64,000 nucleotides of DNA, from the IMG/VR virus record IMGVR_UViG_3300009181_007093; one strand, given 5' to 3'. Under the pieces are notes generated by a model. It had not been told where the DNA came from. It was given only the letters and a program-made list of their open reading frames with translations, and ran no database searches. The number at the start of each line of letters is the position of its first letter. Position 1 is the stretch's first letter. Below are positions 18,448-22,027 of the stretch, piece after piece. This stretch comes from a virus. The translations under genes and the position numbers were made by a program.

Positions 18448-19005
18448 TCACATGCTTCCTAAATAGTTGAATTCAGACAGACTAACCTGACCTGAACGAA
18501 TGCCTTTCTCCCTTGTTATTTTTTTCCCCATGCTTTTTTGACCATTCCAAACTATAGCTTTGCAATAAACAGAGAATTTTGTATCTATTGTTAGGTTTTC
18601 TTTTTTATTTGGTCGCTCTTGCTTAGGAACAACTTTCCTAATAATTTTATCAAGAAGTTTTTCTTGATAAGCTCCAAATTTCTGTCTGCTCGCTCCGTGT
18701 CTTGTTCTATTTTCCCATAGTTCATTTAAATCTATAATTTCTTTCTTAACAAATTTATCTTTAGCATACTTTTTTGCTAGATTCAAAGATTTCTCTATGT
18801 AAATTTGTCTTTTATAATAACTTCCTGCCCGCAGCATGCTCATTTGAAGCTCTTGCTTAATGTCTTCTGCTTCATCCGTAAAGTTGTTGTGAATGTTTTT
18901 TCTTTTAAGTTCATGAGCAGCGTGCCAACAAAGTTTCCCAAACTTCTTTTCCAATTCATTAAATTCTTTTTCATTAATTCTAAAATTATTACAAATATCC
19001 AGCAT
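18448..19005 (-). CDS. putative sigma-factor-like protein (region 2 only)
   Basis: EDIKQELQMSMLRA and KFSVYCKAIVWN resemble sigma70 regions 2.2/2.3; no region 4. Confidence 0.45.
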   Translation of the reverse strand: MLDICNNFRINEKEFNELEKKFGKLCWHAAHELKRKNIHNNFTDEAEDIKQELQMSMLRAGSYYKRQIYIEKSLNLAKKYAKDKFVKKEIIDLNELWENRTRHGASRQKFGAYQEKLLDKIIRKVVPKQERPNKKENLTIDTKFSVYCKAIVWNGQKSMGKKITREKGIRSGQVSLSEFNYLGSM

Positions 19006-19013
19006 AGAATCTC

Positions 19014-20324
19014 CTATTTTTTATTTAAAGCTTTTAAGTCGTTAAGATTTCTTCCGGCACGGCACGTAACCTTTAAATGCAATCCCGGACAAAATTCACT
19101 CTCATCAGATAAAACATTCTTGGCAATTTGAAATATTTCTTTCCAATTGTCTTTCTTAGCATAAACGGCATATCCGTCATGAATTGTATAAGCAATGTCT
19201 GTTTTTTCTTTTAATGCAAAATGAAGTTTGTTTAATTTCTCTAAGCATACAACTGCGGCGGGCGATTGTATACAAAAATTTCTAACTAAGTATTCTTTAC
19301 CCTCATCAAAAGTTCGGTATTTGCTAAATATATTTTTAGCATATCCAAGTGATTTAAATTGCTGTTGTTGGGTGTTTATCCATTCTAAAGATATTGGGAA
19401 TAAAGAATTAATACGATCTACAATTGAATCTGCCTCATCTTTTGGGATGTTGCATCGTTGTCCTAACATGTAGGACGACTGACCATATATAACCGGCAAG
19501 AACGTTTTTTTTACAAAATCTCTATCATTTTTTTTATTTGGCTCTTTTCCCGTCAATTTCTCATACAAAGCATAATAAACATCAGGATGTTTACAGAGTG
19601 CTTGTAGAACTGGGTCTTTTGACAACCATGCAAGCATATGAACTTCCATAGCTCTAAAATCAAAAACCATGAATAATTCATCGAGAAAACGTGGTTTTAA
19701 GTTATCTCGCACATAAGGTTTCATGGCATGAGGTACAAACCCCTGCTTAAACGCTTGAAAACTCCTTAGGCGACCATTCTCCTGCCCGTCTATCTCATAG
19801 AAGGCGTGAACCCTTGTGCCTGTTAGAAGGTCATTAATGCCCGCACACTCTAAATGAGGTATTACAACTGTTGCAAGCGGCAAATGAAGATTTCTATAAA
19901 TCAAATCCACTTCTTTCCAGTGTCCACTTACAACCAAATCCTTTAACCGTGTTATTGCTTCTTTTATGTTTTTTGGTGGATTTAATTTTTTACCAACATA
20001 AGATTCAATAATTTTTAAATCAATAATTGCGGCATCGACTGCGTAGTCCTTTTTTGTGTTTGCAAGAACATACGTTGCGATTACCTTCCAATCCCAAACT
20101 ATTATTTTCATTCCATCCGAAAACAATGAAATCTTCAAAATAGACATTATAAAAGATAAATTATTCTCATTTAAATTAATATCAATTATTCTGCCATCTT
20201 GAAGACATATCTTAATTTCATTCTGAGCTTCTTTATCAGTAAAATCAAATATAGCAGGATTAAAAACAATATAAACAGTTTGATTGTTTATAGAAGAAAG
20301 CAGAGAGATTATTTCAGGAGACAT
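19014..20324 (-). CDS. polA: short family A DNA polymerase
   Basis: NGRLRS, motif A DFRAMEVHMLA, motif B RDFVKKTFLPVIYG, NFCIQSPAA, motif C TIHDG; 436 aa, no 5'-3' exonuclease. Confidence 0.85.
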   Translation of the reverse strand: MSPEIISLLSSINNQTVYIVFNPAIFDFTDKEAQNEIKICLQDGRIIDINLNENNLSFIMSILKISLFSDGMKIIVWDWKVIATYVLANTKKDYAVDAAIIDLKIIESYVGKKLNPPKNIKEAITRLKDLVVSGHWKEVDLIYRNLHLPLATVVIPHLECAGINDLLTGTRVHAFYEIDGQENGRLRSFQAFKQGFVPHAMKPYVRDNLKPRFLDELFMVFDFRAMEVHMLAWLSKDPVLQALCKHPDVYYALYEKLTGKEPNKKNDRDFVKKTFLPVIYGQSSYMLGQRCNIPKDEADSIVDRINSLFPISLEWINTQQQQFKSLGYAKNIFSKYRTFDEGKEYLVRNFCIQSPAAVVCLEKLNKLHFALKEKTDIAYTIHDGYAVYAKKDNWKEIFQIAKNVLSDESEFCPGLHLKVTCRAGRNLNDLKALNKK

Positions 20325-20409
20325 TATTTGTTTAGCATAACAAAAACGAATCAGTTATTCAAGAGATCAAAGACGATTGATTGAACAACTTAGATGTATT
20401 TTTAATCAG

Positions 20410-20465
20410 TATGATTGCACAATCATATCCGTTAGAATCATTAAAAGTATGATTGTGAAATCATA
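20410..20465. promoter_or_regulatory. two related 18-bp palindromes (TATGATT-N4-AATCATA)
   Basis: tatgattgcacaatcata at 20410-20427 and tatgattgtgaaatcata at 20448-20465. Confidence 0.5.
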
Positions 20466-20469
20466 ATCT

Positions 20470-20895
20470 TTAGAGTACTAAACCAAGATTCAAGGTTCTA
20501 TATGCTCTATTAAGTTTATCTGAGTAAGTTACCCATTACCTTAATATCCGATGAATGATGATTCACCATTCACTCAGACAAACATCAGAACCAATACACC
20601 ACTGTTCATTATGCTTATTCAACCTCTTAATCCAGGACGCTCTATTCCCTCATGAAGAATAGACACCAATCATTTTACGTTCCGAGTATAACTTCAGTTG
20701 ATTTGGAAATACGAATGCCTCTTGTGTTAGCATTATTTAAGGTTCTATCTGTGCCACAGACTTTCCAAAGTTCTTTTCTCTTAAAGCAAAGAAAGGGAGC
20801 ATAGCCAATCGTTGCTTTAACGGGTGAGAGAGCACCCAACTCAGTTGTAATAATAGTATATGAGTCGTTGCTCACCTTTTAGGTGAACACTTCCA
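20470..20895 (-). ncRNA. candidate large structured non-coding RNA (unknown family)
   Basis: At least 9 stems, some nested, whose mismatches read as G-U wobbles on the minus strand; no convincing CDS; ends approximate. Confidence 0.55.
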
Positions 20896-20918
20896 ATATA
20901 GTCTATCAGCGTAATTAA

Positions 20919-21078
20919 TTCAAGTTGGAATAAAATAAATAGATTCAAGTTTAACCCATTCATGAATTATTCTTCTAAAACAAATGAATTCAAGTTAAAA
21001 ATAAATGGATTCAAATTAAAAATAAATAGATTCAAATTAAAAATAAATAGATTCAAGTTTAAAAATTTAAAGTTCAAA
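20919..21078. repeat. 21-bp AT-rich tandem repeat array (iteron/origin-like)
   Basis: ttcaaRttaaaaataaatRga x3 plus one degenerate copy from 20989, and a further copy near 20930-20952. Confidence 0.85.
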
Positions 21079-21288
21079 TGCAATACCGTCTTCTATTTGC
21101 TGTTTAATTTGTTTTAAAACCATAAAAGGATCATTGTTAGCTTGTTTTTTCCATTTTTTATGGTACATTGCATCTGTCACATATGTGTGCCTTTTACCAT
21201 CTACATAAACGACAATTCTACCATCATTTGCAAATAATGCTATTGATATTTTGGTTTCTTCAAAAAGTATCCATTCAAAGAAGTTCAT
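21067..21288 (-). CDS. small protein with capsid-targeting-like N-terminus
   Basis: MNFFEWILFEE; TATATA upstream. Confidence 0.65.
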   Translation of the reverse strand: MNFFEWILFEETKISIALFANDGRIVVYVDGKRHTYVTDAMYHKKWKKQANNDPFMVLKQIKQQIEDGIAFEL

Positions 21289-21331: not shown

Positions 21332-22027
21332 TTGAGTCAAAAAAAATCCGTTATTGAAAAATATGAATTAAAATCTGATGAAATCGCTGCTTTTAATCTT
21401 GCCAAAATATGGATTGAACTTTGCAACTCCTATTTCCCCGATTACCAACATACTCGACTAAAATCAGGTGATCCTAGAAAATCTTTGATTTTTAAGATAT
21501 GCTATAAGCTACAAAGAGAAACGGAAGAAATATTGGAAGAAAAAGATTATAATCTTTATGTGAGAGCACAATTAGAAGTTCTTAAATTTCAATCAATTAA
21601 AAATAAATTGGTTTTAATCGATCCTATGTGCTTGGTAGGAGAAAAAGCATGGAAACGATGGAAATTATGGCAAAGTAGGTATAAACAAAAACTTAAAGCA
21701 CCATCGGTGAATAACTCTTTGAAATATAATCAACTTGGAGTTATAAAAGCAATCAACGGCATTTCTAAAACAAAACTGTTTATTGAAAAAAGTATTGGAA
21801 AAACCCCCACACTAAAAGAATATGAAGATTTAAAAAGTAGCTTGCTACTGTGGGTTAATTTTGGTAATATTAGTCCGTATTACGTAACTTTATCTCCGTA
21901 TATGAAGAAGTTATTTGATGCTAAAGATTTTAAAAATTTTGATATCAAGGTTTATAGTGAATGTATAACTTTTGAAGTAGAAAAACTATTTAAAAAATTA
22001 TTCTACTATGAGAATGACACAAAATGA
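21332..22027 (+). CDS. hypothetical protein
   Basis: 231-aa ORF, TTG start with AGGTG RBS, in operon with uvsW. Confidence 0.7.
   Translation: MSQKKSVIEKYELKSDEIAAFNLAKIWIELCNSYFPDYQHTRLKSGDPRKSLIFKICYKLQRETEEILEEKDYNLYVRAQLEVLKFQSIKNKLVLIDPMCLVGEKAWKRWKLWQSRYKQKLKAPSVNNSLKYNQLGVIKAINGISKTKLFIEKSIGKTPTLKEYEDLKSSLLLWVNFGNISPYYVTLSPYMKKLFDAKDFKNFDIKVYSECITFEVEKLFKKLFYYENDTK

Follow-up and report, generated by a model that had tools for sequence, protein, structure and literature searches.

A conserved, pseudoknotted RNA upstream of a minimal DNA polymerase gene in uncultured phages

Results

A gene-free gap lies upstream of a small polA

The DNA analyzed here, which we refer to as the window, is a 64,000-nucleotide stretch from IMG/VR virus record IMGVR_UViG_3300009181_007093. 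The window has a G+C content of ~31% and resembles part of a giant phage genome, and it has no DNA similarity to deposited phage genomes. On its minus strand, polA (19014-20324) encodes a small family-A DNA polymerase of 436 amino acids (Pfam DNA_pol_A, E 6e-25). Alignment with solved family-A enzymes is confined to residues 170-420, which cover the fingers and palm, and no exonuclease or thumb match was recognized in the first 169 residues. Relatives of this polymerase are found on contigs of up to 513 kb; a 381-kb contig among them has an estimated completeness of 79%.

On the minus strand, polA is followed by a gene for a conserved protein of 185 amino acids (18448-19005) and then by one for a DnaB-like helicase. 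An initial annotation made from the window's letters without database searches (the sequence-only reading) had placed a sigma factor in this operon. The 185-aa protein has no sequence family match. In structural comparisons, however, region 2 of many sigma factors came up repeatedly as a match to its predicted fold (pLDDT 83; Z 5.4-7.1), which lends the assignment modest support. The protein is possibly a factor like gp55 of phage T4.

The genes across the gap point in the opposite direction and encode an all-helical protein of 231 amino acids (21332-22027, plus strand), followed by a UvsW-like helicase. The 231-aa gene always diverges from the unit formed by polA and the RNA described below. 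Its product has no Pfam, PHROG or NCBIfam match, and fold searches gave no clear match (best Z 5.7), with only faint hints of helicase loaders. The neighboring proteins (family-A polymerase, sigma-region-2-like protein, DnaB helicase and helical 231-aa protein) include no reverse transcriptase domain. A layout resembling msr/msd is also missing, and the loose analogy with retrons that had been drawn for this locus is unsupported.

The gap itself spans 742 bp (20325-21066), between polA and an open reading frame of 73 codons. It contains no long open reading frame under genetic code table 11, table 4 (TGA=W) or a code with TAG=Q, and is thus gene-free, as had been supposed. The 73-aa open reading frame (21067-21288, minus strand) lies between an array of 21-bp repeats and the divergent genes, and has weak homologues (36-38% identity) only in two related loci, L060 and L005.

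The gap encodes a conserved structured RNA read toward polA

We compared the window with 97 loci encoding relatives of the polymerase, for a total of 98 polA loci. Iterative nhmmer searches found a conserved stretch of DNA, ~280 nt long, upstream of polA in 65 of the 97 loci, and this stretch is kept even where the polymerases share only 39% identity. An alignment made with MAFFT only, and thus free of any structural model, contains compensatory changes in five helices. A covariance model (R1), with its consensus structure set on the closest clade, was rebuilt from 18 diverse matches to give a second model, R2. R2 has exactly one match per locus in 68 of the 98 polA loci; all 68 matches are directly upstream of polA and in its orientation. 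Excluding matches truncated at a contig end, the distance to polA is 170-390 nt. The match in the window runs from 20892 to 20597 on the minus strand (222.6 bits, E 7.8e-53).

The proposed helices are kept as sequences change. Among 39 distinct sequences, standard pairs occupy 93.1% of the paired cells, compared to 61% in shuffled alignments and 37-46% (~41%) when the pairing partners are slid. All of the pairs (47 of 47) change on both sides, and the covariation score is 0.754, compared to 0.229 for shuffles. The 39-sequence alignment was fitted to the model, so that these figures lean toward the structure, and the model-free MAFFT alignment agrees with them. The folding energy of the minus strand is also better than that of dinucleotide shuffles (z -3.82 for 20400-20900, and -2.16 for 20470-20892); the z score for the plus strand of 20400-20900 is -2.61.

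The sequence-only reading had predicted a large phage RNA outside Rfam, with a fold selected in the strand that is transcribed toward polA. Both parts are borne out. The paired columns contain 130 G-U cells and only 24 A-C cells, and this excess of G-U over A-C indicates that selection acts on the polA-sense strand. At gathering thresholds, neither the 64-kb window nor any of 18 related loci matched an Rfam 15 family, and with E values up to 10 there were only chance matches to snoRNAs and miRNAs, outside the conserved core, in 20300-21100. ARAGORN found no tRNA or tmRNA in the window or in 14 loci. These searches agree with the earlier failure to recognize a tRNA, tmRNA, RNase P or group I or II intron by eye.

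There is almost no chance that the gap holds a short protein gene, or DNA binding sites, and no RNA. An open reading frame of 66 codons does exist (20675-20875), and there are palindromes and repeats nearby. However, the fractions of variable columns at its codon positions 1, 2 and 3 are 0.65, 0.64 and 0.64, and stop codons interrupt every frame of this region, even in the closest relatives. The absence of codon periodicity, the strand-specific excess of G-U, and the maintenance of helices through sequence change already contradict this reading; codon-level conservation of the 66-aa frame had been named beforehand as one observation that would count against an RNA. Two others named with it, a lack of covariation among homologues and folding no stronger than in shuffles, were likewise not borne out. 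Taken together, the comparative evidence confirms that the minus strand of the gap, which is the polA-sense strand, encodes a conserved structured RNA.

Dozens of diverse sequences belong to what appears to be a new RNA family. The large surveys of candidate RNAs that we consulted contain no mention of such an element near polA. A catalogue of structured RNAs from IMG/VR lists 10,006 unnamed candidates (PMC10690425), which may include pieces of the polA-upstream RNA.

The core has eight helices and two crossing pseudoknots

A candidate sigma-70-like promoter for the RNA was found by a consensus scan of the minus strand (20923-20895). It has a -35 region TTGAAT (20923-20918), a 17-nt spacer and a -10 region TATATT (20900-20895), and it ends a few bases before the first hairpin, P0. 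In the close clade, sites of the form TTGAyn-16/17-TAnnAT end 2-3 nt before the start of the model, and similar sites occur in several other clades. Overall, a promoter-like site precedes the RNA in many lineages.

The conserved core (20892-20597, minus strand) is supported by the R2 match and by pair counts, and consists of eight covarying helices, P0 and P2 through P8. From 5' to 3' the order is P0 (20889-20882/20876-20869), the 5' strand of a pseudoknot (PKA), a near-invariant ACUGAG (20845-20840), P2 (20837-20833/20826-20822), P3 (20818-20812/20789-20783), a three-way junction in which P4 (20769-20763/20708-20702) encloses P5 (20760-20757/20751-20748) and P6 (20734-20729/20719-20714), and finally P7 (20686-20681/20637-20632) stacked on P8 (20663-20657/20647-20641). 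Seven of the eight core stems listed in the sequence-only reading correspond to covarying helices: 20871-20887 is P0, 20822-20837 is P2, 20781-20789/20812-20820 is P3, 20702-20709/20762-20769 is P4, 20747-20761 is P5, 20714-20734 is P6 and 20641-20663 is P8. The eighth, a hairpin at 20838-20866, is not conserved, and its 5' arm forms PKA instead. P7 and the pseudoknots were absent from that list.

Two long-range pairings cross each other in the core. In PKA (20864-20649), CUCAU (20864-20860) pairs with AUGAG in the loop of P8 (20653-20649). About ten compensated variants of PKA occur across lineages, e.g., ATCGC/GCGAT, CTTGTC/GACAAG, CTCGTC/GACGAG and CTTGCA/TGCAAG. In PKB (20803-20610), UAUGCU in the loop of P3 (20803-20798) pairs with AGCAUA (20615-20610), which follows P7. 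PKB also has compensated variants (GTATC/GATAC, CGTACT/AGTACG, AAGTGCT/AGCACTT, GCGCT/AGCGC and GTACC/GGTAC), and cognate partners score 5.5, compared to 4.3 for non-cognate partners. Two other candidate contacts were rejected. Kissing between the pyrimidine-rich loop of P2 and the purine-rich loop of P6 is unsupported (3.59 for cognate and 3.64 for non-cognate partners), and pairing of ACUGAG with the CYCGGU of a conserved block downstream of the core is contradicted by changes that, by eye, are uncompensated in lineages L042, L040 and L086.

A compact, doubly pseudoknotted core with near-invariant unpaired nucleotides (ACUGAG, an ACGAGAG loop, and GAUUUAGGA) would be in keeping with a new ribozyme that processes itself, cutting or rearranging the transcript before polA. 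We consider such an activity very improbable, since no Rfam ribozyme family was matched, there are no flanking exons, and no cleavage site is apparent in the sequence.

A 3' domain and a conserved block extend the RNA toward polA

Downstream of the core, the window contains a 3' domain (20596-20476, minus strand) with a P9-like stem (20592-20587/20499-20494), a P10-like stem that encloses hairpins (20583-20572/20525-20514), and a conserved block. Both stems had been noticed in the sequence-only reading and are present in the energy-minimum fold of the window. Their positions are those of P9 and P10, the covariation of which is seen in other clades: a four-helix 3' domain (P9-P12) occurs in most clades, and in a large clade its helices keep pairing as sequences change.

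The block, AGAACC..CUUGGUUUAGUA (20499-20476, minus strand), is kept both in the close clade and family-wide, where its consensus is AGUCrGC..CyCGGU. It is the last conserved pairing partner and lies at a fairly constant distance, 92-177 nt, from the ATG of polA. Its own partner in other clades is J7/8, the internal loop that separates P7 from P8. This pairing, PKC, is the third long-range pairing and is found in most clades, with compensated duplexes of 6-11 bp (GATGCTGACTT/GGGTCAGCATC, GCCGACTT/AAGTCGGC and TTGCTGATT/AGTCAGCAA). In those phages, PKC indicates that the RNA reaches to ~100-110 nt before polA and has a total length of ~500 nt. Across the phage group the size ranges from 420 to 500 nt. 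For the window phage, ~420-450 nt is a fair estimate. We also considered that the block could be a general promoter word, and rejected this because there is a single copy in the 64-kb window and a single copy in a 173-kb contig.

The DNA between the RNA and polA has features of its own. Two perfect 18-bp palindromes, TATGATTnnnnAATCATA (20410-20427 and 20448-20465), are 38 bp apart and are the only perfect copies in the 64 kb. The close clade keeps one copy, with arms conserved in sequence, which suggests that the palindromes are candidate operators for a dimeric DNA-binding protein. A weak candidate promoter, TTGAAT-17-TATGCU (20362-20334, minus strand), was seen by eye before polA and was missed by the consensus scan. 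No consistent terminator was found between the RNA and polA across the relatives. In some relatives the 3' domain contains, or is followed by, AT-rich hairpins with U-runs.

Linkage to polA does not depend on how the RNA is found

Searching beside polA could bias the apparent linkage of the RNA to this gene. To avoid this bias, we scanned IMG/VR with two patterns based on the RNA only. There were 30 matches, 13 of them on contigs that had not been found via the polymerase, and in all of the informative loci (29 of 29) polA was directly downstream of the RNA and the 231-aa gene diverged on the other side. Where the module has gained extra genes, they lie at other positions, and none separates the RNA from polA. 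There is one copy of the RNA per contig of 173-381 kb. A narrow motif pattern had no match among 185,579 genomes of bacteria and archaea.

R2, run unfiltered, gave no significant match at six divergent polA loci. The polA clades that lack R2 matches (L003, L028, L031, L036, L051 and L097) have other long regions, 500-700 nt upstream of polA, that are free of open reading frames and look structured. Some of these regions carry strong promoters and terminators, and they share the short motifs ACTGAG, GACAAG and GGTACTCCC and a block, GGACTCGGTnTGCGCA, before polA. In divergent clades a strong terminator closes the RNA-like region and precedes the shared block. These regions may constitute a second, related type of RNA.

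Discussion

The RNA as a proposed leader of the replication operon

We favor the view that the RNA is a cis-acting leader of the operon containing polA, the gene for the sigma-like 185-aa protein and dnaB, and we put the probability of this at roughly 45%. Host RNA polymerase would start at the sigma-70-like promoter (at ~20890) early in infection and would read through the RNA into polA, the sigma-region-2-like gene and dnaB, which would make the RNA a long 5' leader for the replication operon. Binding of a small molecule or of a phage protein, for instance the polymerase, could then let the fold act in cis and set the amount of transcript or protein made from the operon. The mode of action would resemble that of large riboswitches, of the autoregulatory leaders of T4 genes 32 and 43, or of antitermination RNAs. 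We favor a leader because the position and orientation of the RNA are invariant, the structure is near the gene, a conserved candidate promoter precedes the RNA, and no consistent terminator follows it. As in riboswitches and other leaders, a covarying structured domain is upstream of, and co-oriented with, the gene that it might control.

Several observations fit less well with a leader. The structured part ends ~100-170 nt before the ATG, and there is no visible sequestering of the ribosome-binding site. The promoter-like hexamers (seen by eye) and the operator-like palindromes between the RNA and polA indicate that polA may have its own promoter. In addition, most cis-regulators are smaller and less knotted than this RNA, and the strong terminator that ends the upstream RNA-like region in divergent clades fits a separate RNA gene.

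The operators of T4 genes 32 and 43 span tens of nucleotides and overlap the translation start. The polA-upstream RNA likewise has its structure shortly before a phage replication gene, in the same orientation, and could bind the product of that gene; in contrast to these operators, it is 420-500 nt long and ends ~100-170 nt before the ATG. The gene 32 autoregulatory leader is mentioned in the study that presents the IMG/VR RNA catalogue (PMC10690425). If the RNA is a leader, it would also be comparable to large riboswitches, T-box leaders and the put/EAR antitermination RNAs, including put of phage HK022: these are folded leaders that act in cis to control read-through into the genes that follow, and they commonly have long-range tertiary pairings. 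However, the polA-upstream RNA is two to three times larger than these RNAs and has neither a recognizable aptamer family nor a clear terminator-antiterminator pair.

A possible stand-alone RNA or partner of the replisome

The RNA could instead be a large, stand-alone RNA that acts in trans, in the manner of GOLLD, ROOL and OLE, or a partner of a replication protein, and could be next to polA only through conservation of the order of the module. We consider this somewhat unlikely, and nevertheless a serious rival, because the fold is large, does not reach the translation start, and is separated from polA by the palindromes and a promoter-like site, and because of the terminators in divergent clades. 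An RNA gene of this kind would account for the RNA having its own candidate promoter, for a size and complexity of fold that are typical of large ornate RNAs, for there being one copy per 173-381 kb contig, and for the AT-rich, U-run hairpins in or after the 3' domain of some relatives, as well as for the strong terminators that follow the upstream RNA-like region in the divergent clades. It would not readily account for the fixed placement and orientation beside polA, which persist even where genes are inserted nearby, for the extension of the third long-range pairing to ~110 nt before the ATG, or for the lack of a consistent terminator. A role as an RNA partner would be in keeping with the truncation of the polymerase to a protein that matches only fingers and palm, although no protein partner is evident.

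GOLLD, ROOL and OLE are RNAs of several hundred nucleotides with many helices and pseudoknots and with functions that are not known; GOLLD and ROOL are often borne by phages and are found in lake and rumen metagenomes (PMC12286853). The polA-upstream RNA is similar in size, in its many helices and in its pseudoknots. It differs in having no Rfam match and in always being located before polA, and it gives no sign of multimeric assembly.

A possible role of the RNA in initiating replication

The position of the RNA at the point from which replication genes diverge (toward the UvsW-like helicase gene in one direction and toward polA and dnaB in the other) raises the idea of an origin transcript. 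The RNA might form a persistent hybrid with downstream DNA and be extended by the phage family-A polymerase, as with RNA II of ColE1, or an R-loop, as at oriF and oriG of T4. An RNA of ~500 nt with a sigma-70-like promoter, encoded beside the gene for PolA, is consistent with this idea, as is the turn in cumulative GC skew near 21 kb. Furthermore, the window phage has a tandem array of AT-rich 21-bp units (20918-21078; 4 to 6 copies, each with TTGAAT on the minus strand) that adjoins the RNA just upstream of its promoter. However, the array is specific to the window phage. Repeat arrays are absent from beside the RNA in 25 related lineages, and the origin idea thereby loses its main local support. 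The turn in skew coincides with the switch in gene orientation, and no G-rich segment suited to forming a hybrid was seen. The conserved long-range contacts are compensated pairings of RNA with RNA, and a primer would need no such fold. We therefore think it distinctly improbable that the RNA is an origin transcript.

RNA II of ColE1 is a primer that is extended by DNA polymerase I. The polA-upstream RNA resembles it in being a structured transcript of ~500 nt, with a sigma-70-type promoter, from a replication region, and a functional tie to the family-A polymerase is conceivable. The polA-upstream RNA shows no sign of an antisense RNA I, of an RNA-DNA hybrid or of an RNase H site, and to our knowledge RNA II does not have a network of crossing pseudoknots.

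More broadly, the RNA could be a working part of the replication machinery, either as an RNA that specifies or primes the origin or as a subunit that functions with the truncated family-A polymerase, or it could be the founder of a new class of riboswitch or ribozyme that couples expression of replication genes to a cellular signal. We regard this set of possibilities as unlikely.

Implications for giant uncultured phages

Large, highly knotted RNAs are rare in bacteria and phages, and several of the known ones are ribozymes, riboswitches or RNA-only assemblies. In the family described here, three long-range pairings covary, and the RNA is invariably tied to genes for a minimal DNA polymerase, a sigma-like factor and a helicase. 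These features define a clear target for solving the structure and for reporter and binding experiments, and they provide a concrete starting point for learning how replication is begun or regulated in giant uncultured phages.
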